From Naegleria gruberi (Eukaryota), in NCBI GenBank assembly GCA_000004985.1, contig GG738845.1: a DNA stretch of 64,000 nucleotides; one strand, 5' to 3'. Numbering within the stretch: position 1 is the stretch's first letter; each line of letters starts with the position of its first letter. Under the pieces are notes generated by a model. That model did no database searches. It was not told where the DNA came from and saw only the letters and a list, made by a program, of their open reading frames with translations. Both the position numbers and the translations under genes were made by a program. Of this stretch, positions 4,129 through 55,213 are shown piece after piece.

Positions 4129-7100
4129 CTAGTTGTGTTTGTTTTTTTTGGAATGTGGCCTAATATTGTTGTCTATTGGTTTTCTCTTCTTAGTGAGAAT
4201 GGTACGAATGGTTGGACCACTATTCTCTAAAACCTTATCAACAAGTTGTTCTTGCCCGTTGTGGAGAAATGAGTGTATAACTGGATTATAGTCTTGTTTG
4301 AAATGCAATACAGACCACTCTATGAAAATTATTATTAAATTGGGAACGGACATTGCTGTTGTGGTAAAATCTCTAACAAGTGTTTCAAAAAAACCAAGTA
4401 CTTCATCACGTTCATGATTTGCAAGAAGATTTGTTCTATCAAATACCTCAGTAATGATGAAAGATAACTTTTTTGAAAAATTTTCACAATTGCCAGCTTG
4501 GTTGATTAATATTTTCAATCCATCTAGAAACCAAGATTTAGAATTTTGGTCTGATTTTGTTGCCAAATAAATTTCTAATTCTCTATCACACATTCTTAAA
4601 ATTGAGAAGAAATCTGTAGGCAAGCGTGTCAATATATTAGTGCTAAGATTTGCTAATTCCACAAATATATTTCTCATGACAGAGTTCAAGTCTTCCTCAT
4701 CCCTCATAAAGTGGTTGAATATTATGCTCTTAATATGATCAGATAAATTATGAATCACTGATGCAAGATCTGGTAGCCAATATATCCAATACTTCAGTTC
4801 TAACACCTCACAAAGAGTTTTGGAAGCTAGTAAGTTATTTGTTAAAATGCTGGAAAACCATAGAAATTCTTGATTCGATAACATTTTAAATTGACCAGTA
4901 TGGAAGAGTAATGCCAATCTCTGTAGAAGAGGAGGAAATTTCTCATTTTGTTTTGCCATATTTATGGAGAATACTCGATTTTCTCCAATGATTTGGCAAA
5001 TAGTCTTTAAAAAGGGAACAATATTTTGAGAAGAGTCTTTCCATTTGATCACTTTACAAGTTATGCCATCAAAAACAATGTTTAAAAAGTTAACGTGATC
5101 CCTAGAGTGTAAACTTTTGAAAATCACCTCTAAAATTTTTCCAAATCCATCATAACTCTTTTTCTGTGAGCATTCCACAAATATCTCCCTGCAAACTATT
5201 CCCAAATCCTCCAACAAGAACACATCTCTATATTTTTCTATTATATCCGAAAGACATCTGTTGAAGGTACTACTTTGGGTTATCATTCCAGCTCTTACCA
5301 ATTGTCGAGTTAGAGAGGAAGAGTCTATAAGAGTGTTGGACTCTATGAGCTCAAAAACAAACTTTCTAATCTCAAATGGATTTTGCTCTGCAATCTCTTT
5401 TTCCATTATAATTCTGAAAGAAAAACAGTTATGAAAAGGATGAACCTGGGGTAGATTGATTCTTAGGAAATTTAGCAGACCCAAAGATTTGATAGAGAGT
5501 TTTGTTTGGAATTCTTTAAAACGTTTTAACATTTTTTCAGAATTTTCGCAGAAGAATTGTAAAAATTCTATAGGTCTGTTGGAATACATTTCTAAAATGG
5601 ATTCTAAAATTGTATTCTCAGAAGTTGGATCAATAGGTTGAGATTTGGAATCAGAGAGGTAAAACTTGGAAAGAATGGATAGTCGTATTGAATTTGCGAC
5701 TGGTCCTATCGATTCTTCTTCAATTGATTCAAGGGGAGATATGATACATTGCCTAGCATGCGTTGAATCCTCTAAAATTATTCTCTCTTCAATTGTTGAT
5801 AGTAAAGGTATGGTAAACTTGTTTTTTTGCAAGAGGGATTTAAGCCATGTTTGAAAGTTGAATCTTAAAATACAATCAGAAGAATGATTGGTTATAACTT
5901 ACTTAATGGATTTCGAATAATGAAATAATGTAGCCCAGTACATGCAATTGTGGATGTAAAATCGTGATAAAGTATTGGAAGTTATGTTCGGATGTAAAAA
6001 TAAAATATTATCTATTATATCAATGAATGAATTTTCATCCCTAGTATCTGATAAAAGTTGTACAAATCTATTTACAAAAATGTCATTATCTTGTCTGACC
6101 ATAAAAATAAAACCAGAAATTTTCAATTGTTTTGAATGAAGGAAATGTTGCTGAGAAATTCTAAAGCAAATCTTGGCCAAAAACCTTTTAAAAAATGATT
6201 TCTCACATGCCTTGTATACCAATAGCACTTTTTCTATCAATTCTTTTTTAAATTCGTCAGAATATAGTAATAATATGAAAATGGTAGCTGTTAAATCTTC
6301 TACAATATTATAAGGTATATGTTTAGTAGCCTCACCAAATATAAAGCTATTATCCTTACTGATAAATGAATAATCAATTTCAGGCCGTGAATTGAATATC
6401 TTTAACAAATCGAATAACTTTGTTGATGGCAACTCCTGAAAAATAAACCGTTGAACCAAATTACTTATTGTGAAATTATTAATACAGTGAATACTAGCAA
6501 TGCAATCCCAAACATCAAAAAGATCTTTTTTTTCGAGAGGAGTCATTTCTAAAAAGAGGCGAAGGAATTTTGCAATGTTCTCCATGATTTTAAGTAGAAT
6601 TGACTCGCTAGTACTCGACTCTTCCAGACTTGTAAATTCTATCTGGGTTGGCATTGAGAAAACCATTGATGAATTTTGAATTAATAAATTCAATTCCATA
6701 CTACAGTTTTTCAATATGGTCGCTAAACTTTGAAAGTTATAAATATTGAATTGTTTTGAGGTATTAGACACAAAGGTAAAATCGATTAGGTTACATTTTT
6801 CAAGTTCGTCAAAAAATTGCTGTAGAATTCCTCTACCAAAAATATAATTAGATTCTGTGCATAAAATCATGTCAGTCACATTATGGTATTTTTTCATTAA
6901 ATGTGAGGCTATTCTTTCAGAAATAAAGCCAATGCTAATTAATTTATCCTCCTCTGATGTGTCAAGAAAGAAAAAGGTAAGCCTTCTTTGTTGACTGCAT
7001 ACTTCAAATAATGAATAATTTTTGAATTTTGGATTAATAAATCTATGAATATCATTCTCAATCTTATCCAGAAAAGTATGCTCAAGTAATAGAAAAATCC

Positions 7101-7641
7101 AAGTGTTCATACTAAAAAAACTTTCTCCACCCAAACTTGAAATTCCACTATCTGATAAATCTCCAAACATGATTAATTCCTCTTCCAAAACTTGTTTAAC
7201 TGAAAGATGAAATATATTCAATTGTTCCAATAAAACTTCTGTAATTCTATCCTTTAGAATAGTTTCTAAATATTTAAACGAATTTTGCTTGGCATTTTTC
7301 GAAATGGAAAAGTATAATGTTGTAAACAAGCTCATAAAAATGTCAAACCACAACATTTTGTGATTAAATATTATTTTCTTATAGATTTCATCTAGATTGG
7401 CTGACGATTTGCTTGTTTCATTGAACAGTCTCGCAAGATATTCAATAAATAATTTTGAAATTGATGAGAACAATATCGGAAATTTGTGCATGTAGTAATT
7501 CAAATTTTGCCATTGTGTATGTGATAAATCTAAATAATTGGAAGATGAATCCCGTTTAATAGCCTCTTCTATTCCCTTCCAAATTATTTGAAAGGTGTGG
7601 AAAGCCTTTATATGTGTGGAAGACATGACGGTAATCAACAT
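4129..7641 (-). CDS. Large (~1157 aa) leucine-rich alpha-helical protein of unknown function; 2 exons joined by a 39-nt intron
   Basis: The exons are 7641..5903 and 5863..4129, separated by the intron 5864..5902 (gtaagttataacc...attttaag). The phase is consistent: the exon ends in AA, the next supplies A to give K, and the frame continues into track ORF 4129..5832. The track 'M' at 5832 is TTG. The start is ATG 7641, or possibly 7626. I recognised no domain. Confidence 0.55.
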
Positions 7642-7705
7642 GAAAACATTTTTTGCTTCAATTCTAAAAATAAAACATAATTGCGAATAAATAATAACAA
7701 AAAAA

Positions 7706-8028
7706 ATGGCCAACGATAAGAAGGTTGATAACGAAGTGGAAAACAAAGTCGATGAACAAGATGTTTTGGAAGATGATGACTTTGAGGAATTTGAAGATGA
7801 AAGTATGTATTATTAATAGTAAAAATCAACAAAAATATGGTCCGATCTTGAATGATTGCTTAATAATTTTTATTATTTAATTGTAATACAACAGAATGGG
7901 ATGTAAACCAAAAGGAAGAACAAGAACAATTAGAATGGGAAGAAGATTGGGACGATGAAGATGTGGACGATTTTTCGAAACAATTACGTGAAGAACTCAA
8001 ACGACACGAAATGCAAGACGATCAATAA
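7706..8028 (+). CDS. SEM1: 26S proteasome complex subunit DSS1/Sem1 (2 exons)
   Basis: Exon 1 is 7706..7802 (MANDKKVDNEVENKVDEQDVLEDDDFEEFEDE), the GTATGT intron is 7803..7894, and exon 2 is 7895..8028 (KWDVNQKEEQEQLEWEEDWDDEDVDDFSKQLREELKRHEMQDDQ*). It is an acidic ~77-aa protein. The conserved Trp residues and the DDFxxQLRxEL tail are typical of DSS1. Confidence 0.8.
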
Positions 8029-8180
8029 TTATTTATTCATTAAACAGTCACCATTTACAACCCATTATCATTCCCTCCATCCCTAATACTCTTCTGCAAT
8101 AATTCTATCATTGTAGATGTGCTTTATATTCCATTGTAAAAATAAAAACAAATTGCTTATTTGTAATGTTAATAAAAAAT

Positions 8181-10454
8181 TTATTGTTTTGTTAGAGCAG
8201 TAAACAGAGATTCAGCTCTGGAGTAATAACTCTTTTTGGAAACTGAAGAAGGTGATTGCATCGGAGAAGCCGATAATGGAGAAGATGTTAAGAAGCTAGA
8301 AGTCTTAGAACTGAATGGTGAATAGCTTAATGAAGAAATATCTCTTTCTGGTGTGTATGGAAGTTTGTCAGAAGGGGATTTGAAGGCGTCAAACTTTTCA
8401 GCTGAACCATTAATCTTGGAATTGATTAAATTGAAATTAACACCCATTCCAATAATATTGGTTGTAACAGGAGTACTTGTAATTGAGGAGGATCTTTGAG
8501 GTTGAGGAGTAATACTAACGTCATCAGTAAAATCCAATCGCTTACCAAATCCTTGCTTTCTTTCTCTACCAGTTATTTGGTTTTGAGGAGTGGATGGACT
8601 GAAAAGATATGATGGGCTTCCAAAACTATTGTTAATTGGGGATTTCTTTTTTGGAGTATTAATATTTGAGCCAGTTGGACTATCAGATTCGCGTTTACGT
8701 TTTCTTAAAATGGAAGGAGAATTAAATTTGAGTGGAGACATGAAATCTTTTGAAGGTGAAAAGAATGGAATATGTTTTGAAGGTGTTTTGGATGGACTAA
8801 ACAGAATGGAATTTCTATCATGTTTAGGACTGGAAAACATTTCCTCAAAACTGAAGGAAGAATTTAAATTTGAAGTATCATGCTTACTTGGGGAAGGAGC
8901 CATGGCAATATCATAATGTAAATTATTTGGATAAACATCAGTGCTCATTTCTGGGTTGTATGTTGGTGGTTGTACAAGAATTGAATTATTCGCATCATTG
9001 ACTGGTTGAATTTCAACAAATAATGATTCTCCATAACACTCATTTTGAGGTTCATCATACTCAATCAAAGAAGGTGCAATATCAACAACTGATCCTTCAG
9101 CTGTAGTAATAGTCTCAGTAACTGTTGTTTCAACTTGTTGTGGAGCCACTGTAAGTGACACCATTGGAGGAATAGTTGGTGGTACAGAACTGGATGGAAA
9201 AGTGGATGGAATTTGTGGAGGTTGTGATTTTGGTGGCAACTCATTGAGTTGATCTGTTTTCTTAGATTTTCTTCTCGTGTATTTTCTCTTTGGTTTGGCA
9301 TTAGGATCTATGAGAGGTGTTGAGCAAGTGGAAGTTGTTGTGCTATTTGTTTGACTGGATACAATTGAAGTTGTACTAGCTTCTGAAACTGTATCTAAAC
9401 CATCGTCAGACTTTTTCTTAGCAGCACGTCCTCTAGGTTTTGTTGGTGGAAGACCTTCTTTTTCTCTTCGTTCCCTTTCCATCTTTCTTCTCATTGTTGA
9501 ATTCCAATGATTCTTAATGGCATTGTCAGTTCTTCCAGGTAAAAGTTTAGCAATTTGTGCCCATTTGTTACCATAATCTTTATGTGCTTGATAAATGATA
9601 CGATCTTCTTCCTCAGTCCATGGTCCTTTGTTGATATCTGGATTAAGATGATTGTGCCACCTTTCACGACATTGTTTACCAATTCTTCCAGGTAAATGTT
9701 GAGCAATGAGTGACCATTTTTTGGCACCATACTTTTTAACTAATTCGACAACTTGATTGTCTTCCTCCTGGGTCCATGGTCCTTTGACAACTTCAGGATT
9801 CAAAACTTTTTGCCATCTGTGAAGACATTGAACATCAGTTCTTTCAGGGAAATGTTCGGCGATCTTCTTCCAATTTTTGGCTCTATGATGCAAAACAGCA
9901 GCCTTTAATATTCTGTCTTCTTCTGGTGTCCATTTTACTTTGGATTTGTCCCTTATAAGAATTAGCTAATAATCTTCTGATTTCACTTACTTTTTAGAAC
10001 AAGTACTCTCTCCTTCCGATTCATCAGTACTTTCGGATGGATCAGCTTCGTCATCGGAAACAGCATCTTTAGACTTGGATGTCGACACGATGATTGGGGT
10101 ATTCATTTTCAAGGGTGTATCTGGAGAAATAGAAGCAACAATACCACTCGGTGGAATTATTCCTGTTGCACTTGTATATGGAGATGAATAATTGTTATGG
10201 ATATTAATTTCTGAGAGTAATCCTGAGTGATGATGAATTGTTCCATTGAACATTAAAAATTGTTTAGTGCCATTTGAATCGGTGGATGGGACAAGTGGAG
10301 AAGGATGATGTGGATCCATCATTGGAGGATATGGGGTTGTTGGAGTTGAATATAAAACAGGATTTGTAGTGCTTGTACTTGTGGAAGGAGGAGGGTTAGT
10401 TGGGTTTTGAAGAAAAGCAGAGTTAGGTTGTTTCTTTGTTGTGTTAGGGTTCAT
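8181..10454 (-). CDS. c-Myb-like transcription factor with R1-R2-R3 Myb repeats (2 exons, ~744 aa)
   Basis: Exon 1 is 10454..9991 and is S/T/P-rich and acidic, ending ...ESTCSKK. The intron is 9952..9990 (39 nt, gtaagtg...cttataag). Exon 2 is 9951..8181. The junction restores Myb repeat R1: [50 protein letters not shown]2 and R3 follow: [24 protein letters not shown] and [24 protein letters not shown]. Confidence 0.88.
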
Positions 10455-12704: not shown

Positions 12705-12724
12705 TCGAGTTAACTCATTGACTT

Positions 12725-14949
12725 TTATTTCATAAACTTCTTGAGGTATGTAAATTTTCTTCTCTTTTGTTTTTCAGTGAGCTTTTCGTAAGGTGATTGA
12801 TTATCAACAGGTTGTTCTTCTGGTTTTTGTTCAACAAGAATGGTTTGTTCATCCAATTCAAATGGATCATAACCTTTGGCTTGAATGATCTTTTCCTTCT
12901 TTCTCTCAAGAGACTCGGTATGAACATTGACACGATTGAAATCATCAATTTCACCTTCCCATTCCATTTCGTCCTCAGATTCTTCTAATGTAGCCTCTTC
13001 TTCTTCATCAGAGTTGTAAATGTCTTCTTCGTCATCATGATATTCTCCTTCTTCTTCGTCTTCACTTTCTGTAAAGTATTCACCATCGTCTTCCAATTCT
13101 TCATCATGATTAATGACAATGATTTCATCATTATCATTAAGCATTCCTTCTGATTGTATCTTATCATTTTCTTCCAAATCATCAACTTGAATATTTTCAG
13201 GAGGTGCATGGCAATACAGAATTTTACCATCTATGTAATCTTTCAAAATACGACGAGCAGCTGTTGGATAGTTGGGCACGAAATTCTTGGACATCAAACT
13301 CTTTGCAATACAAAAAGTCTTAAGTAAATTTTCTGGAGTAACAAATGTCATACGTTGTTTTCCAGGAAGTTTTGGGAACGACAAACCATATGTAAGTTCG
13401 AAAACACGTCTAGGAACACGACAACAAACCAATTCTATTGGTGGAATGTGATCTCTCATTTGGTGATCAATTGAAATAATACCATTTACAATCATTTCTT
13501 CCTTGGTTGTTGTAATTGATGGGAAAACTAGACCTGGACAGTCAGCAATCATTATACTTTCACCAATTGGAAGTGTTTGGAAATGTTTTGTTTTACCTGG
13601 AGTGGAACCAACTGCAACCTTCTTTTTACCACATAACACATTTACAAGTGATGATTTACCAACGTTTGGATAACCGACCATACCAACAACAACTCTACCA
13701 ATGTCACTCTTCTTATTTTCAGGATTGAACTTATTCATCAAACTCTTAAAGAAGAATAACAATTCAGATCTATCAAAAATATATGTCCAATCTTTTTCTT
13801 GGGGATTTTCATAATTAGTAGTATCGAATGAATCTAGTTCCTCTTGTTGTTCTTTTAAAAGATCTTCTCTGGTAATTTGACGATTTGCAATTTTAGAAAT
13901 TTCATTCAAAGCAGAGAAGAAGATAAAGTTAATCTTCTTCTTTTTAAAGTAGCATGCCCATTTGAATCTTTGCTTTTTTGTAAGCAAATCAGCCTTATTC
14001 AAAAGTAAAAAGTTTTCCTTTGATGAATCAACCTCTTTCACATACTTTTCTAAATCTTCACTTTGAAATAATAATGGATTACGAGAATCTACAATTTGAA
14101 TAACAATGTCACTTCTCTCCACAACACGCCATAATTGTCTCCAAACTTCAATGTTCTTTTCATATGGTGTGAGTGTAGCATCATAACTTTCTTCAATCTC
14201 TGCCAAATTTCTTCTCCACTTTAAGAATGATTCGGTTTCAAATTGAATGAGTTTCTTCTTTGCTAGTTCATTCTTTTTTTCCTTTTTCTTCTTTTTCTTC
14301 TTTTGTTCGGGCTCAGTTGACTCTTGAACATAATTCATCAAATCATAGGCTTCCTTTGGTCTTCTAGGTATTGGTAATTGTATTCCCATTTCTTGTAATT
14401 CACGAACACGTTCATAAATTTCATCTTGTGATTTTTCCTTCAAAACCAATGTTCCTTCAGCATAGGCTTCATCGTCATCATCTTGATTTTCCTCATCTAA
14501 AATTATTTCATATTATTTAAAAAAATTATTAATCAATGATAAAACATACCATCTCCTTCTTCTTCTTCATCCCTATCAACGACATGAAATTCTCTCCGAG
14601 AGCCATCTTCATCAGTATGTATTAAAACAGTAGCACTATCTTTTTCATACTTTTTTAAGCTCATCTTGGCGTTTAACATTAAATCTTGGAGATCTGTTGT
14701 TCCAATTAAACTTTCCAATTTTCCTCTGCCTTTGTTGAGCATATTGTGCATGATATTATCTTCACGTAAAATTTCTTCTTCGATAGGAAGTTCATCGGAG
14801 CCCATGGTTACGGTTTCTTTACCCAATATTGCATCAGCAACTGGTTCTTGATGTCTATCAGAAAACACCTTGTCCTTCTTTCGGTTACGAGCTTTTAAAA
14901 TTGTTTTACCTAATCCTCCGGATTTATTCTTGGTTCTTGTTCCTGGCAT
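12725..14949 (-). CDS. LSG1: Large-subunit GTPase 1 (LSG1, circularly permuted GTPase), 2 exons
   Basis: Exon 1 is 14949..14550 (MPGTRTKNKSGGLGKTILKARN...). The intron is 14497..14549 (gtatgtttt...ttttag, 53 nt). Exon 2 is 14496..12725. A long block matches human LSG1: LKWRRNLAEIEE...WRQLWRVVERSDIVIQIVDSRNPLLFQSEDLEKYVKEVDSSKENFLLLNKADLL. The G-motifs appear in circularly permuted order: GYPNVGKSS, then DCPGLVFP. There is an acidic C-terminal tail. Confidence 0.88.
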
Positions 14950-16324: not shown

Positions 16325-16927
16325 TTGAGGGTAGACTTTTTTCAAGAATGTAGATATTTCTCCTTCATTGCTTGTTGTTTCATTCCTTACTCTTTTAATA
16401 ACATCCTCAATTGAGTCCGTTTGTATCTTCCCTTGTAAACATTTAAATAATTTACTTCCAACCTACTTCTTGATCGGCCACAATGCCTTGCTCCACTGAA
16501 AAATCATTACTAATACATGATGCATTGGATTGAACTCCAGAATCCTCAAAAGACAAACTCATCGTCTGTGTAGAATGGTCTGCACTCGGATTCTTTTTCT
16601 GGCCCCACTTTGAATTAAAATTGGCTCCTTGAACAAATCCGAACGAATAGAAAACTTCGTTATTTGCCTTGTTCATCTTGTATTTTTTTGTTGTTTGACC
16701 AAAAATTTGGCGCTTTTTTTTGTACAAACATCGACAATATTCACTAAACTTTTTCCAGTGGAGCTTGATTAAATTAATATGGCTCTAATTCATGTTTTGT
16801 GAGAAACCTGAAGAAAGTTCCTGACACCATTGACATCACTATCCAAAACCAGGTAAAAATGTTTTAGCCCAAGTAAAAAATTATAATTATTTATTAATTT
16901 AAAAGTAAGCTAAATGAAATTGATAAT

Positions 16928-19900
16928 TTAAACAATTGTCTTTCTAATAATTCTTCCATCTCCACCAGATGTATAGAAAAATTGAGTGCTTATCTCAGAC
17001 CATGTAACACCTTCTTGAGTGAAAAGTTTCTTCTTTGGGTGAGTGTCTGGATAAAAGTATAATTGTTTCTTTAAATTCTTCATATCCCAAACAGTTATGT
17101 GACCATTGGAGCAACCAGTAACAAAGAAATCTTCTGTAACATCAATATTTAAAACTTGAATACTGTCATGTTGAGTGGAGGTCTTTTGTAAAAAACCATA
17201 ACTTCCATCTTCTGCATCAAAGATGTAAATATCTCCCTTCTTGGTACCAACAAGTAATAGTTTATACTTGTAAGAATAGCGAAGGGCAATTGGTTCATCA
17301 TTGTTAGGGAATAAGTAATAGAACATTTTAGCATCTTGATTTGGCAAGAATAAATCCCAAATACACAATTCGCCTCCCTTTTGTGATTGTCCAATAGTTG
17401 CAATCAAACTGCCTGACTCTAAAAATGAAAAATCATTTACCTTAGTGCCATGACAATGTAAATGATAAAAGTAATGTAGACTTTCCTTGGATGCTTCAAA
17501 TCTCCATAATGTAAGATAACCTGATGTATCTGTGACACCAAATTTGTATCCAAATCTGGAGAAACGAATGTTAGTAATTGGTGATGTACCAGGTTCTCTA
17601 TAAGTTCTCAAAGCATATTGGAATCCATATTGCCACATGAATACAGAACCATCTGCACCTCCAGATATATAGAAAGGTAAAAATGGATGAGATACTAAAA
17701 CGTTGGCTGTTTGATTTCTGTCAATTTTTCCAACTTTTTTGACTGGTTGTTTAGATGGAGGAACATTTGATTGTCTTCTAAAATGAGATGCAGATGGAGT
17801 TGTAGTCGTGAAGGAAGGTCTTTTACCAACAGAAAATCTTTGTTTAAGCTTGTTCATATAAGAATTGCTTGAATCGACAGAAGACATTGGATTGGAGAAA
17901 CCAATAAACTTTTTCAAATTCTTGTTGGACATGGCTTCATCATCATTTACCGTATCTAGGAAGTCAAAAACGTTAAAGTTTGAAATGCTTGGAACTTTAG
18001 CAATAGAAGAGGACTGCTGTACAAACTTGGTATTATTTACATCCTTGGCAGCAATTTCATCAAATCGGTGGAATGATTGATCCCAAGTATTGGCTTCCTC
18101 ATCTAAAAGTTTGTCAAGTGAAGGATTTCTCTTTCTGTATCTAATAGAATGTTCAATATTAATCTCTCTAATACATTTGCCAGATGCATATGCCAAATAG
18201 CTTGGGTTATTGGAGTCTACACAGAAAGATTTGATCAATTCTTTACATTTGACAATTTCAATATCTGCAGAGAATTTCAAAACTTCATCTGATTCTGTCT
18301 TTGAGAAGTCGGAGGAAGTTTCGGTAGTGTTCTCACCACTAGCAAATTTTGCTAGACTACTATTGACGCTTACGGAACTGCTAATATTTGGTTTTGGTTT
18401 AGATGATAAATCCATCAAGTAGCTCCATAATTGTTGGGAAGTTGGATCAGACTTGAAAGTATCGAAAATCTTTTCATCCTCTAACCAATGATCACTAATA
18501 CAAGACAAGAGAAGATTTTGTTGTCCTCCAACTTGTTCCAATCCCAACTCTGGTAGAGCATGTGCCAATGAGTGGAAATGATCCTTTGACGATTGAGTAC
18601 GTTGATGCATTTTCTTTGATCCATGAGAAAGGGTTTCTACCATGCTTGATAAATTATTTCTTGTTGAGAGTGCGTTTACATCTTTCAAATTAGGAGCCCC
18701 ATGCTCAGAGACAGTGTATACTTCCATTTCTCTATATTGAAGTCGTCTTTCTAAATGGGAGCACCACAATGCAGAACATGAAAGAGCAGTTTGTGCACAG
18801 AGTGAATATTGTTGCTTATTGATATCATCCCTCTTCTTTTGGGATTGTTTGACAAATCCAGAGTAGGTTTCATCATAGGCATGTTCAATAAAATCCTTTA
18901 GAGTTGTTGTAAACTTGAACACTACAAATGCATCAAACATTTCCCAATGAAATTGCTTTTCAATTCTTTCAACATCCTCGTTTCTATCACTTCCAGATTT
19001 TGTGGTCTTGTTGTGATAGTTTTCGAGAAGATTTTTGTAATAGTCTTTCTTCTTCTCAGCTTCTTCTTTGTTAATGATCAAACCGGATGTCTTATTGACA
19101 GGAGCTTTTTTCTTTCTTTTCTCTTCTTGGTCAATTTCCTCTTGCATTGCCTTGTTTATCTTATTATCCAACATCTTTTTCTTGAATTTTTTGTGGAACA
19201 TGGCCATTCTATCGAAAAGTAAATGATAAAACTTGTCAAATACTTCTTTTCCTTCAAAGCTTGGACGAGAGGACAACGAATCTCTTTCCTTTTTATCAAA
19301 ATCTTGATGAAGAGTAAAAAGTGTGAAAAGCCCCTCAAAATCACGGTTAAAGTATAAAATTACAAACATCATTGTCTATTCAAGTTAAAAATGATCTATG
19401 TTTTTTTCAAAATACTTACTAAAAGAGTTGATGAGAGATCTGATTGTTGGTGTTCGGTAATGATTACCTTATTGCTCTTCATTCTACTGTAACAATGGAC
19501 ATATTCCTTTAGTAATCCTTCTAAAACGTTAACTTGTGATTTTCTTAATTGATTCTTGATTACAAGAGAAAGTGTGTTTTCAACTTGATAAACAAAAGAT
19601 TCCAAAATTCTAAGAATTGAACTTGGCTTGGAGCAAAGTAAACACCTTGCTGCTAATAATCCATTGACTCTTGTGAACACTTTGAGCTTTTTGATTAGCA
19701 TTTGTTTGTCAATATCCAATTTTTCAACAAGCTCATCAATATCTGTCATTATCTTCTTATGATTCTTGTCCCAGTCACTGTGGTAATTTGAATTGGTACG
19801 ATAACAACAATCATAAAGTTCTTGAGAAATGATTGTGAGGGCTGTTTTGAATTTGAGAAGTTCAGTAAGATCAGTTTGTTCTTTAGCATCCTCAATGGAA

Positions 19901-22900
19901 ATAGTGGAAGAGTTCAATTGCTGTTGTTTAGTGTTACCCATTCCCATACCACTCATTCCACCAAACCCACTCAAAGTTCCACTTGCAAGATTTCCTGATG
20001 TGCCTGATCCTCTCATGGAGTTACTCATTCCCATATTGTTCATTCCACCAAATCCACTCAGAGTTCCACTAGATAGATTTCCAGAAGCCATGGAATTACC
20101 CATTCCCATACTGCCCATACCAAACCCACTTAAAGTTCCACTTGCAAGATTGCCCGAGTTAATGGAAGAAGTCTTACTCATTGAATTACCCATTCCCATA
20201 CCACTCATTCCACCAAATCCACTTAAAGTTCCACTAGACAAATTTCCAGAAGCCATGGAATTACTCATTCCCATACCACTCATTCCACCAAATCCACCCA
20301 AGGTACCGCTAGATAAGTTGCCAGATGTCATAGAGCTATTCATACCCATTCCCATACTACTCATTCCGCCAAACCCTCCCAAAGTTCCACTTGTCAAATT
20401 TCCTGAAGTACTAGGTGTAGTTTTAGGTGTCCCAAAGGCTCCCATATTGATTTGACCAGACATTAAATCATTTTGTCCAGTTGAAGTATTCAACTTTCTT
20501 TTAGAAGTATATTGTTCCATATTTTTAAGTTTCAATAAATGTTCTAAACAAAGTGTGTAAAGTCCAACTTGGCTATAATAATGAGCAGTTCTTAATAATA
20601 TTGGAAGAGCATGCTTTGCAACAAGATCTGATGAATTCAAGTGTGGCTTGGAATCTACCTTAATACAGAATGCAAAAAGAGAAGGATCAAAAGCTTCATT
20701 CTCCTCTCCTCTCTTGATGAGTGTTTCAATGGATGTTTCATACTTTTTCAGTGTCCACAAAATAACACCTTGCATCCATACATCCTTGCTTTCAGTGTAT
20801 CGTTGATAGAGTTCATTTTCCAACATGTTCTTACAGAAATTACTATCATCACCACAATATAGACGAGCAATGAAGAAAGCTAAATCGTATTCTTTGGCGC
20901 TTTTGATGAGAATACTGATAGCGTCTTTAGGATTATCAGCAAGTAAAAAATATGCGGCAGCATAGTAATAATCCTGTCTACTAAGTAAAGTATAGGCATT
21001 CTTAGATGCTGCTACTCTACATTTTTCATCTGTGAAATCCTTATTTAAGAATTCAGCAACCTTCTCATTACCTTTGAGTTTGAAAAGTCTAGCCAATGCT
21101 CCTTTCTTCTTAATAGCCATATAATACAAAGCACATTTGGTAGGATCATTTGTTTCCTTATAAATTTCTGTTGCAAGTCGTTCAGCAACCTTTCTCAAAG
21201 AATTATTATTCATCCAGTAACAAACACCCAACTGTTCTACAAGTTTCCAACAAATATCCTCTTCTTCTGGGCAAATCATACGCCATAATGAATCCTGTGT
21301 TTCAGAAAGTAAAGCCCAAGCTATCATTGAACTGTTTACCTTTTCTATTAATAAATTATCATGCTCCGTTGATGATTTTGAAGAATCCCTCATTTCGGGT
21401 TTTCTTTTATCGTATAGAAACTGTAAATACTTGACTGTCACAAGATATCTGATACCAGCTGGATCTAAGGCTTCAGGATTTCTTTGAAGCTCAATAAAAG
21501 TGTCAACTACAGCCTGTAAGTTCATTTGCTCTATCTTTGAAATGCCAGGTAAGTGAATACTACTTTTAGAAAGGAGAGAGTTTAAATAATGGACATCGGA
21601 ATAAATGTTAATTTCTTCTTCTTCAGTTTCTGTCGGGGTTTCCTTCTTTTGGTTTTCTTCTTTGGCTATTTCTTCGTCAATATTTGTGAACTTGTCAAGG
21701 AGTGTTCTTCTCTTTTGTACAACAGGTTCTGTCTTCTTTGATTCTTCCTTTAAGAGAGAGGTCACTTTAATTGATGGAATTTCCAATAGGTGAGAATAGT
21801 CCTTGTCCTTATTTAGATATTCTTCAATTTTATCATTCTTCTTCTTTTCAACCAAATCTTCATAAATCTTCAAATGCTTAACTAAATGATGTATAATTGT
21901 CTTGATTATACTAAATCTTCCATCCATAAGTAATTCTAAAAGGAAATTTGGGTGATAGTCTACTAGTCTTCTGTGCGTAAGTAAGGATTCTGTATTAAGA
22001 GTTGGTTCAGATGCCAATTTGAAAAGAGACATTAGAGCAAGAGAATCATCATTTTGTTGAGTCTTTGTGTACACATGCAAAGATGAACCAAAAGAGGCGA
22101 TAATAGCCTTATCCTTTGTAACTGTAATTTTGGAACATGGATGACCTTTAACTGAAGGCATAAATTGTGTAACCTTTTTCCAGTATTGTTTTTGTTGTTT
22201 GATTATTCCTGGAGGTATCTTTGATTGAGTGTAGTACAATATCTTGGAATCTGTTCCAATACAAATAACAAACTGACCGTCTCCATAGCTCAACCATTCA
22301 AAATCGTGCACGAAATCACTCTCTGTATTGATAGATTGTTCTAATGTGTATGTTACATGGGATTCATTTTCCCAAATTTTTACACAACTTGAGGAAGAGG
22401 TTGTAGTAGCAATTCTAGAAACCAATTCACAGCACCTAACAGTAGTAATTGGTTCTTTTTCGGCTCTAAACTCGAACCACTTTTGTAATATGAGTTTTTC
22501 CTCATCTGTATTAATACTGGCTGTAGAAGAGCTAGAATTGGAAGTAGTGGCGGTAAATTTTCCAAGAAGACCACCAATCTTTGGTTTCGGAGGCTCTTTG
22601 ACTTCATTTTCCTGTTTTTTCAATCTTATTACAGAGACAGTACCATCCTTATTACCCAGAGTAATAACTACCACTCTTTGATTAGAAAAATACTTCTTAA
22701 TACTGGATTCATTTGATAAAGCTGTCTTACTCTCTACAGTAAAATGTTTTAAAGTTGTATATAAAATTAAATGACTTACTATGAATATCATACACAAAAG
22801 GAACTCCTTTTACACAGTCTGCACTGCAAACGATCTTTTCAAGATTTTGTTTGATAAGGGTTTTACATTCGAATTGATTTACATCATTTTGCTTTGCCTC

Positions 22901-24968
22901 AACTTGGAAAATGCCAATGGTTTTACAATTCGAAGCAATAGCAACTACCAATGCTCCAATTGAGGAGGTTTTTTCTGGACTAGTAGGAGATGTTCCAAAA
23001 GGCAAAACTTTGAGGAACATACAATCAGAAAAATCTTCTGAATTTGGAAGAATAAAATTCAATGAATGAATATTATAGTAAGAAGGTGAAGGTGGAAATA
23101 TTGTAGATTCATAGATGCTAGAGAGGTTGTGAGTGAGAGGGTTGACTGATTTTACGTGAATGACTTCAATACCTTTGTTTGTTGAGCAAAACAAATGAGG
23201 AGAAGTAGGAAACCATGAAATATTTGTTGCATTAATTTGAAAATCTTGAATATTGGTCAAAACATCTTTAGGGCTATAAAATGGTGTATCTCTTATATGC
23301 CATGCTACAAGATGGTTATTATCCTTATCTAATGATGCCATTATTGGTAGACTTGGGTGGCATTCCATATTTTTAACATCTCCAATATGTCCTGTAAATA
23401 CATTAAGTAATTCTAATTGAGGACGTTTAGCCAAGTTTAACTCCCAACTAGATAACATTCCATTTCTACTTTGTACATAGATTGTTAAAATTTTTGGAGT
23501 TGTAGAACCCAAATCAAGATTTGAATCATCAGCTGTTTTGTAAACCATTGATACATTTAATGGATCTTCAATACCTTTTAATGCATTAGGCATCTTTATC
23601 CACATGGAAGTTTTTGGAGTTCTTCTTGGAAAATCGGCCAATCCTTGTAATAAATCAATCATTAATGTACCATCAGATTGAACTGTTCCTAACCATGTTT
23701 GTGATTCGAATAGACCTGTATCAGAACTTGCTTTTTGAAGTTTAGTCTCCAAACTGATCTTTGTCTCACTCTCTAAAATTATATCCTTGTGATCACCTTC
23801 ATAAGACTTCTTTCTTTTTTTTCTGAGGTATTGTAGAAGTAGCTCATTTGGGCTCCTCTCATTAGCTGTATTTAACCATTGCACATTGGAAGGAGTTTCC
23901 TTTTCAATGATAGAACAAACATAAAATGACAAGTCTTCATTCTCGTTTGTTTCACTCCATACACGTACCACATTGTCAATAGATGTTGTCAATAAAACAT
24001 TAGCTGTAAATTCATCTCTTTGTTGTGATTGTATATCCTTAAATCTCCATGAGATGGAAGTAACTGAACGAGGATGAGGTAAATAAATGTAGGAAAAACT
24101 TTCTTCTTCATCATCCTCAATAGTTTGTGAAGTAGATTTTGGATCTACAATAGTAATTACTGGAGTAAATAATGATACTCTGACTTGAGGTTTGTTTCTA
24201 TACCAAACCTTTACAAGACGATCAAACTTGGACACTGTTGCAAAATATTTTTCATCTGGTGAATATGCAACTAAGTAAATTGGAGTTGGATTGTCATATT
24301 TCCAAACCATATTCCATTTCTAAACTATATTATAAATTTCTAAACATAAAGAAACATACATAAACTTGATTTCCTAGAATAGGTTTTCCTTCAAAAATCA
24401 TTGTAGTTTTTCCACCAACAATTAGTCTATCACCATAAAAATTCCAATCCATGCATTCGAATTCATCTGTTGAGTTAATAACCTGTTCAACAATCCAAGA
24501 AGGGCTCTTTTTCAAGGCACCATTGTCAACCTCATCTTCAACTGGAGAATAAATAACAATTTTTCCTCTTGAGCAAGCAGCAATTCTTCCATGAAGATTA
24601 CTCCATTTTACGCTGGTAATAGTTTCATCATGACCATCCAATAATTGAACAAAACTATTTCCACAATAAACCATAACATGTCTTCCGCTTGCAAAAGCAA
24701 TCACTTCATCACCCATAAATGTTGACCATGTAAAAGCTTGAGGATAGGGATTAATAGAACCAGGACAAACCTGCCAAGCATTAATCCCTTTTGATCTGTT
24801 GATACTTGGTGTTGTCTGTTGTTCCGTTGCATTGGATCCTAATATATTTAAACCGTTTGAGAAGATATTTCCTCCAAACGATGATGAAGAACCAGCAGGT
24901 GTAGAGGGAGTACTTTTTGGTGTATTAACCAAAGGAGTAGTGGTTCCGCTCGAAACACCGTTAAACAT
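16928..24968 (-). CDS. DMXL: DmX-like / rabconnectin-3 alpha / Rav1 homolog (V-ATPase assembly regulator), 4 exons, ~2636 aa
   Basis: The exons are 24968..24360, 24319..22780, 22733..19420 and 19375..16928. The introns are 24320..24359 (gtatgt...gtttag, 40 nt), 22734..22779 (gtaagtcat...ctgtag, 46 nt) and 19376..19419 (gtaagtat...gaatag, 44 nt). All phases are consistent and the total is 7911 nt. The N-terminus AWQVCPGSINPYPQAFTWSTFMGDEVIAFASG...LDGHDETITSVKWS matches the DMXL N-terminal WD region. The exon 2 start ...VAYSPDEKYFATVSKFDRLVKVWY matches the DMXL 'FSPDG.FFATAGKDD.LLKVWY' block. C-terminal WD repeats are GGADGSVFMWQ, GCSNGHITVWD and SGGDGRI. It joins four separate track ORFs. Confidence 0.72.
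19925..20440 (-). repeat. In-frame coding tandem repeat (~75-nt unit x ~7) encoding a 25-aa Gly/Met/Ser/Asn-rich unit inside exon 3 of the rabconnectin gene
   Basis: The protein reads ...SGNLSSGTLGGFGGMSGMGMSNSMA SGNLSSGTLSGFGGMSGMGMGNSMS..., about 7 imperfect copies. On the + strand the DNA shows the recurring unit cattcccataccactcattccaccaaatccactyaaagttccac. The antisense Pro-rich ORF 19829..20455 is the mirror image of this periodicity. Confidence 0.85.
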
Positions 24969-26883: not shown

Positions 26884-27921
26884 TTAAAAAGAGAAGAAAT
26901 GATCACCACGTTTCATTTCTAATTTTTCTTCCAAAACCTTCTTCATTGCAGCCAACATTGGTGGAGGTCCACACATTAAAATATTCATCTTATCACCCTT
27001 TGCTGGCAAGTACTTTTCAATCAATTCTTGAGTAATAAAACCAACACCTTGAGTCCAACCAGCTGGTGGTTCGTTCAAAACATTGAAAAGAGTAAAGTTC
27101 TTGTGTTTAGATGCCAATTCCTCGAGTCTATCACGCAAAATGATATCTTGTTCAGTCAAATTACCATATAATAAACTAACTTCAGTCTTGTCATCTTCAT
27201 GTTTGAGAATTTCTTCAATAACTTGTAACATTGGAGTAATACCAGTACCACCGGCAATCATACCCAATTTGTTATACTTGTTCTTTTCATATGTAAAACG
27301 TCCCTTTGGACCACTAACCAAAATACTTTCTCCAACTTGCATATTTTCCAAATGTTGGGTCATTAATCCTTTTGGATAAATTTTGGCAACAACATCGAAG
27401 AATCCCTTATCATCATTAGATGATGTTGGTGTATAGCTTCTAGCGATTTCTTCTCCATTGATTGAAGCCCTATTACAACAATTATTCCGATTGTTAAAAA
27501 GGATAGTAGATTACACTTACTTCAAGGAAATGTGTTGACCGACTGGTAAACCCAAGCACTTTCCAGTTGGAAGTTCAAATCTAAAGAGACGAACTGGGCA
27601 TTTAACTTCAGGACCATCGGTAAGAGTGATCTTTTTGATGAGTTTGAATGGTCTATATTCTTCGGTGGAGAGAACACCTTCACTCTTTACAGCAGCAGTA
27701 GTATTACTGGTAGTGCTGATTGGTTTGGTTGGTTTACTACCCATAAGTTTTTTAATTAAAACTGAAAAAGCTACTATAGCAAAAGCTGTTACTCCAAGTG
27801 TTGTCAAATCTCCGGAGAGAAGTCTTTCAATTNNNNNNNNNNNNNNNNNNNNNNNNNNNNNNNNNNNNNNNNNNNNNNNNNNGATCTTCATTAATTCGAA
27901 ATAGATTAAAGTTGATTTCAA
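26884..27921 (-). CDS. CYB5R: NADH-cytochrome b5 reductase (membrane-anchored); 2 exons; the 5' exon is interrupted by a scaffold gap
   Basis: Exon 1 runs from about 27921 to 27521 and contains the N run 27833..27882, so the start is uncertain (MKI-gap-...). It has the TM anchor LTTLGVTAFAIVAFSVLIKKL and the FAD domain FRFELPTGKCLGLPVGQHISLK. The intron is 27470..27520 (gtaagtgtaa...gtaatag, 51 nt, phase 2). Exon 2 is 27469..26884: ASINGEEIARSYTPTSSNDDKGFF...MIAGGTGITPMLQV...CGPPPM. It aligns with human CYB5R3 across the splice junction. Confidence 0.82.
27833..27882. other. Run of 50 N: an assembly or scaffold gap of unknown true length
   Basis: Literal n characters occur in the sequence, inside CYB5R exon 1. 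Confidence 0.99.
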
Positions 27922-27995: not shown

Positions 27996-29955
27996 TTAAT
28001 TGGACCAAACATCCTTTTGATATCTGTGACCTAATTTTTCCAAATAATCTTGGGCATCCTTTTCAGTCATTCTACCATATTTTTGAATACTGTTCAACAT
28101 TACATTTTCTACATCCTTTGCCATATGTTTAGCATCACCACAAATGTAGAAATAGCCACCATTATTCAAAAAGTTGAATAATTCTTCACTTCTAGATTCT
28201 AATCTATGTTGAACGTAAACCTTATTTCCTTGATCTCTAGAGAAGGCAACATCTAAAAGAGAAATAACACCATCTCTTTCTGCCTTTTCCATTTCTTCAC
28301 TATAAATATAATCTTCACCTCTCTTTCTACAACCAAAATAGAGATGACATGGTCCTAGTTCAACTCCTCTATTCTTCATAGCTGTTCTTTGTTCAAGGAA
28401 TCCAAGGAATGGAGCAATACCAGTACCAGGTCCAACCATGATAACAGGAGTCTTTGGATCTTGTGGAAGACGGAAACTTGATTGACGAACATAAATAAAA
28501 GCCTTTTTGTCTACATCAATTCTTTCCAAATATGATGAACAGACACCTTCCTTGTTTGCTCCGATTGGAGTAGTATACTTGACAACAGCAACAACGGCGG
28601 AAATAGTATTTGGATGTAATTGAGATGAGGAAGCAATAGAGTAGTAACGAACTTGCATCTTTGGAACAATTTCTAAAAGGCCGTCAACTGGTAACTTGAC
28701 AGATGTGAAATGATTCAAAACCTCAAGAACATTACGACATCCTTCCTTAACAAAAGAATTGTACTTGGCTTTACCCTCCTCGCTATTTGAAGCAAGAAGT
28801 TTGAGTTCAGTACGTTCAGATTCATTTTGAGCATAGTGAGCCATAACTTTGAAAGCTTTCTTCTTTGCGAGTTCATTAAGATCCATATAATAAGTGAATG
28901 CAATTCTGAGAGTCATTGCATCCTTTGGGAAATAACTAGCCAATCTGTTATCTTTGTGATTTCTCAATTGGAATGGTGCATCGGCTTGTTCATTAGTAAT
29001 TCCGATTCTAGCCAAATAAGCATTTACCAAATTTTCATTATTAGCTGGATAGACAGCCAAGTGATCGCCTGCTTCATATTTGATTCCACTATCAGTAATG
29101 TTGAAATCTACATGAACAGTACTTCTATTATCCGATCCAGAACTCTTCAACAATTGTTCCTTCTTACTAATGGTAGCCAAGAATGGGTGTTTAGCATCAG
29201 GAGCAGAACTTGATGATTTGAATGGGGTCATGGCAATATTCTTCTTTAAGAAGTCGAGAGTAAACTTTGGTTCATATTCCTCTTCTTCTTCTGTAATGGT
29301 TGTAGAGAAAATGTCAGAAGCTGTCAATAACATGTGTGACTTCCATTCTTCAAAATCTTCTTCAATATCAGCATCAGCATCACCTTCTCCCTTTCTAAAG
29401 AATCTTTCACCACCGAGCTCTTCAAATCTTTTATCAAAGAATCTCGCCATTGCTTGGTAAATCTTGTATTGCTTGTTACCCAATCCAAAAACAGAAAACT
29501 TGACACCTGAAAGCATATCAGAGGAAATACTTGTGTCTTTGTAGTATTCATAAAAATCACGAGCGTTATCAGTTGGTTCACCCTCACCGTAAGTTGCAAC
29601 CATTAGGATGACAAGTTTTTCATTTGAAATTTGGTCAGGCTCAAAGTCAACCATATCCTTAGCAACAGCATTAAAGCCGTACTTTTTAGCATCTTGTGCT
29701 AATGTATTAGAGAATTCTTCAGCTGTACCTGTTTGAGAACCATAGAGAATGAGCATCTTTGGCCTTCCATCATCAACATATTCCTTGCTAAAGTTTAAAA
29801 TTATTTTAAATTTAATTATCTTATACAGTAGAAAATAAAACCTACTTTTCTTCTTCAACTTCTTCTTCGGTTTCTTGGTTATCCGATCTCAGGACAAACC
29901 AGTAGGTAAAGAAAGCACCAATAGCAGCCAAAAATCCATATAAAATGTAACTCAT
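27996..29955 (-). CDS. CPR: NADPH-cytochrome P450 reductase (CPR), 2 exons
   Basis: Exon 1 is 29955..29846 with the signal anchor MSYILYGFLAAIGAFFTYWFVLRSDNQETEEEVEEE. An alternative ATG at 30031 is possible. The intron is 29788..29845 (gtaggtttt...ctttag, 58 nt). Exon 2 is 29787..27996. It has the FMN domain MLILYGSQTGTAEEF...YGEGEPTDNA, the FAD motif RYYSIASS, the NADPH motif GPGTGIAPF, and the C-terminal DVWS. Confidence 0.88.
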
Positions 29956-31969: not shown

Positions 31970-33544
31970 ATGTCAGCAGAGAAACTGAAAGAAGCAGACA
32001 GTCTCGAAAAAGAGGGAAAGAAACTGTAGGTTTGGTTTTAAATATGTTCGGATAGTATAACGTAGTTAAATATTAGAACTGAACGATCATTATTTCGTTG
32101 GTCACCTGATTGGGATACAGCTGCTTCAAAATTTGAAAAAGCATCCTTGTTATATAAAAATTTAGGAAAGGATGATAAAGCTGTTGAGTGCTACTTGAGA
32201 GCAGGTATGTGGTCTTCCTACTAAAATATTAATAATAATTGAATATAAATTAATTTAGGAGTTTGTCATGAAAAGAATAAAATGTTCTACTCTGCAGGAA
32301 AATCCTATGAAATGGCAGCCAACATTTATCAAAATACAATTAAAGACTACATCAGTGCCTTTAAAAATTATAAAGATGCAGCCCGTCTCTATCTTGATGA
32401 TGGAAAGAATGATCGTGCAGCTGAGGTTCTTGTCAAGGCAGCAAAATCAATGGAAAAGGAACCAAATTGTTTGAATCAATGTGTGGAACTATACAAGGAA
32501 GGAATTGAAGCTTCAACCATGAATGGAAAATATCACAATGTAACTGATATTCTTCGTAATTTTAATAACTTTCTAATAAGACATAAATTATATACTGAAG
32601 CTATTCAAAATTTAGAAACACAAATTAATGCTTTTAGATCTCTATCTCAACCAAACAATGAAAGAAAAGCCATGCTGGCGATTATTATTCTCTATTTGAA
32701 GAATGATGACCCAGTTGCTGCTCAAAATGCTTTGGACAAATTCACCAATGATAGTGGATCTTCTGGATTTTGTGAGAATGATGAAGGTGACGTTGCAATT
32801 CAATTAGTGAGTTCTTTTGAAAATAGAGATGAAAGAATGTTGGATCAAGCAAAAACAAGCTCTGTAATCAAGTTTTTGGAAGGTCCAGTCTCAAAGATTG
32901 GTTTGACATTGTCATTAAACCCTCTTCTTGATGAACTCAATGAAAAGAAAAAGAAGGCAAACACTCCAGTCAGCCCTTCAGTGAGTGGCACAGCAAAAGG
33001 CGGAACTAGGTCTAGCTCTAGCTCTGGTGGTAAGGCTAGAGGTAAGGCAGCACTTTTCGATACTGGTAGTGATGATGAAGAGGAAGATCCTAAGGCATCC
33101 AGAAGAACTGGTAATAACTCATTCTTATCTGGTAGCAGTAGCAGTACAAACAAACCAAAAACAGCCTTTGCTCAAATGCCTTCAAAAGAGGAATTGACAG
33201 CCCTTCAAAAAAAGCAAGAAGCAGCTTTCGAACAAAGACAACAGGAGCGTAGGGAAAGATTGGAAAGAGGAGAATCTGAATTCGATGATGACGAAGAAGA
33301 GGATGGACAAGATGCAGAGATTCCAAATGGAGAGGGAGACGACTTGACTGGTGCAACTGATTCAAAACAAAAAGCACCACAATCAAACGATGATGACGAT
33401 CTTGAATATGTTCCCTCAACTAAACCAACACAACAAACAGATGATTTCTCTAAACCAGTAGGAATCGCTCCTTCTGCCCCAGCCGAAATTGACGATGAGG
33501 AAGATGAAAACCAAGATATTTTCGACCCTACCGATCTTACTTAA
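31970..33544 (+). CDS. Gamma-soluble NSF attachment protein (gamma-SNAP)-like, 3 exons, with a long acidic/Ser-rich C-terminal extension
   Basis: Exon 1 is 31970..32025 (MSAEKLKEADSLEKEGKK-L). Intron 1 is 32026..32076 (gtaggtt...tattag, 51 nt). Exon 2 is 32077..32204 (TERSLFRWSPDWDTAASKFEKASLLYKNLGKDDKAVECYLRA). Intron 2 is 32205..32258 (gtatgt...aatttag, 54 nt). Exon 3 is 32259..33544 (VCHEKNKMFYSAGKSYEMAANIYQ...). The N-terminal 300 aa are collinear with gamma-SNAP (LKWKPDYDSAASEYGKAAVAFKNAK...). The tail from about residue 320 onward is S/G/D/E-rich. Confidence 0.65.
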
Positions 33545-33569
33545 AAAACTTATTAAAGCTTGTAGTATT

Positions 33570-52830: not shown

Positions 52831-52832
52831 AT

Positions 52833-54004: not shown

Positions 54005-54048
54005 TTTTTTGAGTTATATTTTGGCGGGATTGTAATTTCTAAGGTTTA

Positions 54049-54951: not shown

Positions 54952-55213
54952 TTTCTCTATTTACAAGTTGGAGGTCCAACAAAACGTTTAATAAAAAATT
55001 TAAGGGTTTAAATTGCTGTAGTTTTTTTAGATGTGGTTTTGCCCAAGCCAAATTTGTTATCATTACGATACCTGCAACATAGTGAGAGTTCGCTGTGTGA
55101 CGAGTTTCCAGATCATCTTTCCATTTCATAAAAAAATTGTCAATTAATATTTTCACTTATCAATTTACATATTATTTATTAGTGTTTTTATTTATTGGAC
55201 AGGTGCTAGTAAT

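Follow-up and report, generated by a model that had tools for sequence, protein, structure and literature searches.

Short spliceosomal introns are a regular feature of the protein-coding genes in a 64,000-nucleotide (nt) stretch of Naegleria gruberi DNA (contig GG738845.1, assembly GCA_000004985.1; hereafter the window), in which two segments of only 39 nt interrupt a gene for an orphan protein and a gene for a three-repeat Myb protein, respectively. Both segments, together with approximately 23 others in the window, are almost certainly ordinary U2-type GT-AG spliceosomal introns of N. gruberi NEG-M, and the introns of the window fall into the short or "minimal" class that characterizes compact protist genomes. 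As a finding on N. gruberi, the shortness of these introns is ordinary and already known, and it is largely contained in the public annotation.

The first segment (5864-5902, GTAAGTTATAACCAATCATTCTTCTGATTGTATTTTAAG) links open frames of 635 and 577 codons in the orphan gene, and the second (9952-9990, GTAAGTGAAATCAGAAGATTATTAGCTAATTCTTATAAG) links open frames of 167 and 589 codons in the Myb gene. An earlier note on this DNA, made from the sequence alone, had read them as two introns of exactly 39 nt that start with GTAAGT, end with AAG and restore long reading frames, and both the coordinates and the junctions of orthologous proteins agree with that description. In both cases, the preceding exon ends with AA and the intron starts with GTAAGT. 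Since AA|GTAAGT reads AAG TAA, an unspliced segment would meet a stop codon immediately. Candidate branch sites in the two introns are CTGAT at position -13 and CTAAT at position -11, and the AG dinucleotides located 5′ of these sites are unused in both introns.

Comparison with orthologues provides evidence for the two junctions. The junction of the Myb gene lies five codons upstream of repeat R1 rather than within it, and the spliced sequence STCSKK|DKSKVKW matches TKKDKSKVKW of Naegleria lovaniensis across the junction (the best homologues of both the Myb and the DMXL proteins of the window are found in N. lovaniensis and Willaertia magna). The same site is occupied, in the same phase, in three other Naegleria loci, where the introns are 92 nt (L001), 105 nt (L002) and 53 nt (L003) long and share no sequence with the 39-nt intron of the window, with the flanking codons conserved. 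The orphan gene (4129-7641, minus strand) encodes a product of 1157 amino acids without a Pfam match. No homologue of the spliced protein was detected by a word-indexed search, and an exhaustive HMMER search with exon 2 retrieved four relatives among 1.8 billion representative proteins, two of which could be traced to an organism (N. lovaniensis and Willaertia, both Heterolobosea); the gene looks lineage-restricted. The junction YWATLFHYSKSIK|FNFQTWL aligns without gaps to the proteins of N. lovaniensis (P0186) and Willaertia (P0187), which read ...YWATIFHYSESINFNFLTWL... and ...YWATILHNSSQINFHLSDWL... at this point, and the corresponding introns, at the same position and in the same phase, are 59 nt (L006) and 40 nt (L007) long. 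Conserved position and conserved flanking codons, combined with free length and sequence, are the signature of true introns, and this signature effectively excludes that the segments reflect read-through, errors of sequencing or different boundaries.

Frame-restoring GT-AG pairs beside breaks in open reading frames (ORFs) were enumerated throughout the window, strong donors inside genes were scanned, missing 5′ exons were searched for, and every uncertain junction was checked by eye. This census yielded 25 introns in the 64-kb window (39, 39, 40, 40 (probable), 41, 41, 42, 43, 44, 44, 44, 46, 46, 46, 47, 48, 51, 51, 53, 54, 58, 71, 92, 105 and 155 nt), a total that includes a three-intron reading of a Rac gene described below and one probable 40-nt intron; without the latter, the lengths have a median of 46 nt and a mean of 56 nt. 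The earlier note had counted 22 introns. Its short class of 18 (39, 39, 40, 41, 42, 43, 44, 44, 46, 46, 46, 47, 48, 51, 51, 53, 54 and 58 nt) and three of its longer introns (92, 105 and 155 nt) are shared by the census, and its fourth long intron, of 161 nt, does not hold as a single intron because it would create a frameshift and a stop codon. If the group of 41, 71 and 44 nt proposed at that place is counted as "161", the census list equals the earlier 22 plus the probable 40-nt intron. For nearly all junctions, support comes from orthologues that can be aligned across them, from a Pfam match that runs on unbroken or from a spliced product identical to a GenBank protein, so that chance is not a concern; the junctions lacking such support are those of the probable 16427-16466 intron, a possible intron at 56788-56833, the ATG14-like gene, the NADPH-cytochrome P450 reductase gene and the proposed Rac micro-exons.

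All 25 introns start with GT and end with AG, and the GTAAGT of the two 39-nt introns fits the extended donor consensus GTRNGT, complementary to U1 and U6. The donors are GTAAGT (12), GTATGT (8), GTAGGT (3), GTACGT (1) and GTAAAT (1), and the acceptors are TAG (19), CAG (3) and AAG (3). The AAG acceptors are confined to the three shortest introns, namely 5864-5902 (39 nt), 9952-9990 (39 nt) and the probable 16427-16466 (40 nt), all others having TAG or CAG. GC content ranges from 0.11 to 0.34 in the introns, compared with approximately 0.34 in three long exons sampled. U12-type introns are defined by a 5′ end of the form [AG]TATCCTT and the branch site TCCTTAAC; none of the 25 introns has the U12-type 5′ end RTATCC.

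Several other readings of these data have to be weighed. The 39-nt segments could be coding sequence whose interruption stems from a sequencing error, a stop codon that is read through or a mutation in a pseudogene, as might be suggested by the fact that each of them is a multiple of three lying between ORFs in the same frame and that the orphan segment contains only one in-frame stop codon. However, the Myb segment holds two in-frame stops, the 13 residues are missing from the orthologues, whose alignment passes the junction without interruption, and the orthologous GT-AG segments at the same sites (40, 53, 59, 92 and 105 nt) are mostly not multiples of three and do not resemble the sequence of the window, which leaves this explanation barely credible. 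It is also very improbable that the GTAAGT donors join TAG or CAG acceptors farther downstream, to give introns of 78-150 nt in place of 39-nt introns ending with AAG. Although AAG is among the rarest acceptors (3 of 25) and in-frame alternatives exist at 78, 108, 120 and 150 nt, their use would remove residues that the orthologues conserve, namely 12 residues that include the start of R1 in the Myb protein and FNFQTWL in the orphan protein.

A different question is whether a special splicing machinery, tightly constrained and working at the physical minimum of intron length, lies behind the size distribution. The lower edge of the distribution is sharp, with nothing below 39 nt in the window, the shortest introns found in relatives are 37 and 39 nt (Naegleria contig L004) and 40 nt (Willaertia), and the three shortest introns of the window all use AAG acceptors; approximately 37-40 nt thus looks like the intron-length floor of this lineage. 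On the other hand, sister species carry introns two to three times longer at the same sites, the window also contains introns of 71-155 nt, its splice signals are standard eukaryotic ones, no unusual spliceosome component was looked at or encountered, and introns down to 13 nt have been cited in other eukaryotes (PMC4674806), all of which makes a special machinery unlikely. The statement of the earlier note that the lengths are near the lower functional limit therefore goes too far, in view of the 37 nt in a related Naegleria and the 13 nt elsewhere, and so does its "tightly constrained", as the same sites hold 39 nt versus 53, 92 and 105 nt, 39 nt versus 40 and 59 nt, 92 nt versus 57, 240 and 257 nt, and 105 nt versus 240 and 295 nt. 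When only N. lovaniensis and N. fowleri or N. fowleri-like loci are compared (39 versus 92/105, 39 versus 59, 92 versus 240/257 and 105 versus 240/295 nt), the N. gruberi intron is the shorter one at all four sites (in the Myb, orphan, DSS1 and GMPPB genes), by 1.5 to 2.8 fold in this small sample. Published averages point in the opposite direction, with mean intron lengths of 203 bp in N. gruberi and 126-144 bp in N. fowleri (PMC8296547); the median in N. lovaniensis is 80 bp (PMC6125883). Since the four-site comparison reverses these averages, the annotation of N. gruberi may have inflated its mean. For N. gruberi introns, literature searches turned up means and medians and no length mode; the genome-wide mode of about 45 nt put forward previously was extrapolated from one 64-kb window, from which such a value cannot be derived.

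Four observations weigh against the interpretation of the two segments and their neighbours as ordinary short introns. Excision of the 39-nt segments from mRNA is inferred and not observed; the exact spliced models of the Myb and orphan genes are not in the protein collection, which implies that the public models of both genes differ somewhere (in the start codon or a boundary); a clear branch-site motif was picked up by a simple motif search in no more than about 10 of the 25 introns; and the local mean of 56 nt is far exceeded by the mean of 203 bp published for N. gruberi (PMC8296547).

The anatomy of these genes suggests how such introns might be recognized. Short introns between long exons would be recognized across the intron (intron definition), with U1 and U6 pairing with the strong 5′ splice site and a yTRAy branch site lying approximately 10-13 nt upstream of the 3′ end. 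Without a long pyrimidine tract, the AG shortly downstream of the branch site would serve as the acceptor, even in the form AAG. As 39 nt is a multiple of three, retention of either intron would keep the frame, but the TAA in AA|GTAAGT would end translation at once, so that an unspliced message could not yield the full-length protein. The coordinates of the individual features, together with the evidence for each, are listed in Table 1.

Table 1. Introns and candidate micro-exons of the window, with the evidence for each
Feature	Position	Strand	Sequence features and evidence
39-nt intron, orphan gene (~1157 amino acids)	5864..5902	minus	GTAAGT...TTTTAAG, phase 2; frame restored
39-nt intron, three-repeat Myb gene	9952..9990	minus	GTAAGT...TTATAAG, phase 2; frame restored
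92-nt intron, DSS1/SEM1	7803..7894	plus	Pfam DSS1_SEM1 unbroken, residues 16-69 to profile 4-60 of 60
53-nt intron, LSG1	14497..14549	minus	Spliced model identical to XP_002683481.1 (large subunit GTPase 1, N. gruberi NEG-M)
Probable 40-nt intron, WD40 gene, near 5′ end	16427..16466	minus	GTAGGT...GGGAAG; in frame, length fits range
44-nt intron 3, DMXL	19376..19419	minus	39 nt at same site in L004; unbroken Willaertia ORF aligns straight across
46-nt intron 2, DMXL	22734..22779	minus	Intronless ORFs in L004 (P0122) and Willaertia match only this product
40-nt intron 1, DMXL	24320..24359	minus	Same site and phase: 37 nt in Naegleria contig L004, 72 nt in Willaertia L005
51-nt intron, cytochrome b5 reductase	27470..27520	minus	Pfam FAD_binding_6 unbroken, residues 68-163 to profile 3-99 of 99
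58-nt intron, NADPH-cytochrome P450 reductase	29788..29845	minus	GTAGGT...CTTTAG; membrane-anchor exon joined to flavodoxin-domain exon
51-nt intron 1, gamma-SNAP	32026..32076	plus	Model identical to XP_002683166.1; Pfam SNAP residues 9-259 to profile 3-256
54-nt intron 2, gamma-SNAP	32205..32258	plus	Model identical to XP_002683166.1; Pfam SNAP unbroken
48-nt last intron, Rac	38366..38413	minus	After 15-nt exon 38414-38428
161-nt stretch (earlier note: one intron), Rac	38429..38589	minus	Proposed introns 38549-38589 (41 nt), 38474-38544 (71 nt), 38429-38472 (44 nt)
Candidate micro-exons, Rac	GAAG 38545-38548; A 38473	minus	Between the proposed 41-, 71- and 44-nt introns
46-nt intron 2, Rac	38669..38714	minus	Alignment to human Rac1 and Pfam Ras
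44-nt intron 1, Rac	38777..38820	minus	Gapless alignment to human Rac1 and Pfam Ras profile 1-157
155-nt intron, C1D/Sas10-family gene	44698..44852	plus	Pfam Sas10_Utp3 unbroken, residues 15-90 to profile 4-87 of 87
105-nt intron after 17-nt first coding exon, GDP-mannose pyrophosphorylase (GMPPB)	48758..48862	minus	Model identical to XP_002683492.1
41-nt intron, TPR-repeat gene	53342..53382	minus	TPR_NPHP3 unbroken, 100 residues to 100 profile positions
42-nt intron, ATG14-like gene	55676..55717	plus	GTATGT...AAATTAG; joins ORFs of 176 and 357 codons
47-nt intron, Zn2Cys6 transcription-factor-like gene	62582..62628	minus	Identity to XP_002683495.1; frame restored
43-nt intron, same Zn2Cys6 gene	62869..62911	minus	Identity to XP_002683495.1; Pfam Zn_clus
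46-nt intron inside Zn2Cys6 motif, same gene	62965..63010	minus	GTACGT...TTTTAG; model identical to XP_002683495.1

Once spliced, the CYB5R, gamma-SNAP, GMPPB, C1D, DSS1, Zn_clus, TPR and Ras domains each become single and unbroken, and introns of 43, 46, 47, 51, 53, 54 and 105 nt are implied by public N. gruberi protein models that are identical to our spliced models. For example, the Zn_clus profile is covered by 37 residues aligned to 37 positions across two junctions (those of the 46- and 43-nt introns), and the FAD_binding_6 score of the cytochrome b5 reductase is 98 bits for the spliced protein versus 67 bits for exon 2 alone. The comparison of spliced proteins with orthologues that was suggested in the earlier note finds the Myb and DMXL junctions conserved; in addition, the Pfam match of CYB5R is unbroken, and LSG1 is identical to its GenBank counterpart. 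In the P450 reductase gene, the 5′ exon encodes the N-terminal anchor MSYILYGF..., and no Met is found in the main ORF upstream of the domain. The DSS1 intron site holds 240, 257 and 57 nt in L001, L002 and L003, and an alignment of the DSS1 introns from the four species revealed no block common to all. At the GMPPB site, N. fowleri has an intron of 295 nt and N. lovaniensis one of 240 nt. In the latter species, the public GMPPB model P0193 (313 amino acids; L014, approximately 9740-10000) includes neither the first coding exon of 17 nt (ATGACCGTTAAGGCACT) nor the 240-nt intron after it, and this annotation looks to have missed a small exon.

For the WD40 gene, options of 31 nt (with a GTTGGA donor) and 61 nt (with a GAG acceptor) were judged less likely than the probable 40-nt intron, whose donor type GTAGGT is used elsewhere in the window; the spliced WD40 model is not in the protein collection. 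A possible additional intron of 46 nt (56788-56833, plus strand) was noticed in the ATG14-like gene, whose stop codon sits in a perfect GTAAGT donor (CT|GTAAGT), followed 46 nt on by a good acceptor (...TATCGTCAG); splicing there would add 37 residues, and neither version of the protein, with or without this splicing, is in the protein collection. No intron is needed between the ORFs 54052-54960 and 53345-54013, which are separate genes 44 nt apart, or upstream of the Rab-like gene 25114-25668, or between the Rac and Nop16 genes. An Rfam scan of the whole window detected no RNA family, and it therefore provides no evidence for small nucleolar RNAs hosted in the longer introns.

The DMXL (rabconnectin, Rav1) gene illustrates how introns of this size affect gene finding. 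It had been described as split into four ORFs, as is indeed the case, the breaks being caused by introns of 40, 46 and 44 nt. At the site of intron 2, the intronless ORFs of relatives read ...EMHKSEAALASESS and the product of the 46-nt splice reads ...DIHKSKTALSNESS; two other choices, of 58 nt (22722-22779) and 55 nt (22676-22730), were rejected, as they give products that neither intronless orthologue matches. Intron 2 is absent from Naegleria contig L004 and from Willaertia, and intron 3 is absent from Willaertia only. Since intron presence differs among these relatives, introns have been gained or lost within Heterolobosea. The more general warning of the earlier note, that ORF callers fragment genes here, holds for callers of the prokaryote style: the database ORF calls P0002, P0122 and P0185 are single-exon pieces of the Myb, DMXL and orphan orthologues, respectively. 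N. gruberi genes are unreadable with stop-to-stop ORF callers, and aligners and gene predictors must accept introns down to approximately 37-39 nt as well as AAG acceptors.

An unusual structure is found in a Rac/Rho GTPase gene (37981-38868, minus strand). Exon 3 of this gene ends with ...DTAGQ (GGACAA|GTAAGT, phase 0), and the next recognizable exon, 161 nt downstream, is the 15-nt exon 38414-38428 (CTACGATAATCTTCG, encoding YDNLR). Removal of the 161-nt stretch as a single intron was rejected, as it yields CAA CTA CGA TAA, i.e., a frameshift and a stop codon. From the frame and the invariant DTAGQEDYD motif, it follows that five missing nucleotides must encode Glu-Asp. Two candidate micro-exons with canonical flanks, tttttgtag|GAAG|gtaaat and cctcacag|A|gtaagtg, would supply them, and their inclusion restores DTAGQEDYDNLR. 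The resulting product of 197 amino acids reads DTAGQEDYDNLRPLSYP at the motif and can be aligned with human Rac1 without gaps over the motif and the whole GTPase domain, the full alignment covering residues 4-195 (E = 3e-63). When all 109 GT-AG paths containing at most two internal exons were enumerated, 17 were in frame and free of stops, and the canonical motif arose only from the path that combines GAAG and A. By chance, a path giving GAAGA or GAGGA was obtained in 9 of 20,000 Markov-simulated (0.045%) and 15 of 20,000 shuffled (0.075%) 161-nt stretches. Two minor rivals were considered: AGTAA kept as one 5-nt exon, which would give QSNYD and depends on a weak GTGAAT donor, and a GAAG plus T path, which would give QEVYD.

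On these grounds, the 161-nt stretch probably consists of introns of 41, 71 and 44 nt, sizes that are normal for the window, placed around constitutive exons of 4 nt (GAAG) and 1 nt (A), with the introns being removed successively. A metagenome scan for Rac orthologues found only distant Rho relatives (37-48% identity), and a synteny attempt did not locate the Rac gene in the fetched Naegleria loci, including those around GMPPB in N. fowleri and N. lovaniensis. The protein collection contains none of the three candidate versions of the Rac protein, and hence the public Rac model must differ from all of them. If real, the Rac micro-exons would be a rare case bearing on the minimum exon size that a spliceosome tolerates and would imply that an intron-definition spliceosome acting on introns of about 40 nt can keep exons of essentially zero length; to our knowledge, no nuclear exon of a single nucleotide has been reported outside plants, and the 1-nt exon would then be the first. 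That small exons are easily missed, as had been anticipated, is illustrated by the 15-nt exon and the probable 4- and 1-nt exons of Rac, as well as by the 17-nt GMPPB exon absent from the N. lovaniensis annotation.

The surroundings of these genes are compact. The window is AT-rich (32-36% GC in most 2-kb windows), and long ORFs are densely packed on both strands; among the typical eukaryotic proteins that they encode are a DEAH helicase, Myb, LSG1, DMXL/Rav1, cytochrome b5 reductase, P450 reductase, gamma-SNAP, Rtf1, Clf1 and GMPPB. Identical counterparts among the GenBank proteins of N. gruberi NEG-M exist for PEX7, GMPPB, gamma-SNAP, LSG1, the Zn2Cys6 protein and two small proteins, and these matches, PEX7 excepted, sit on one scaffold of 1,555,553 nt. 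Intergenic spacers are mostly 20-300 nt. Spacing is tightest between the UbiA and TPR genes, which converge with only 2 nt between their stop codons (52831-52832), and other spacers of 20-44 nt lie at 12705-12724, 33545-33569 and 54005-54048. The largest intergenic stretches without a convincing ORF are 10455-11417 (963 nt) and 56792-57473 (682 nt), neither of which has an Rfam match. In the cytochrome b5 reductase gene, a 50-N assembly gap (27833-27882) interrupts the first coding exon shortly past the start codon.

Compact intron classes are known from several other eukaryotes: the intron length mode is near 47 nt in Caenorhabditis elegans, approximately 40-50 nt in fission yeast and approximately 25 nt in Paramecium. 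The introns of the window resemble such minimal classes in their narrow peak just above the lineage minimum, their strong 5′ splice site, the short distance between putative branch site and 3′ end, and their recognition, as proposed above, across the intron. They differ from others in that their median of 46 nt is below the 80 bp of N. lovaniensis (PMC6125883), far below the 203-bp mean published for N. gruberi (PMC8296547) and well above the shortest known intron classes. With regard to N. gruberi itself, the two 39-nt introns use the same splice signals as the annotated NEG-M introns on the same scaffold (EFC50422.1, EFC50737.1, EFC50748.1 and EFC50751.1), unlike which they belong to genes whose exact spliced models are not in the collection.

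The candidate micro-exons of Rac invite comparison with two further systems. In the long introns of Drosophila, recursive splicing takes place at juxtaposed 3′ and 5′ splice sites, the AG|GTAAGT ratchet points. The sequence cctcacag|A|gtaagtg in Rac is similar in that an acceptor is placed almost directly before a perfect donor and the flanking introns would be removed one after the other; however, ratchet points leave no nucleotide behind and occur in very long introns, whereas Rac would retain one nucleotide between introns of 41-71 nt. In plants, micro-exons of 1-15 nt have been described (PMC8831610), and an exon of one nucleotide in APC11 of Arabidopsis, the nearest precedent for the Rac case, was demonstrated by complementary DNA and reporter assays (PMC4674806). 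As in APC11, the Rac stretch makes sense only if tiny exons with canonical flanks are kept, and the public annotation appears to miss them. Unlike APC11, the Rac case is based on the reading frame, motif conservation and a shuffle test, and it would involve two consecutive micro-exons among three minimal introns in a protist.

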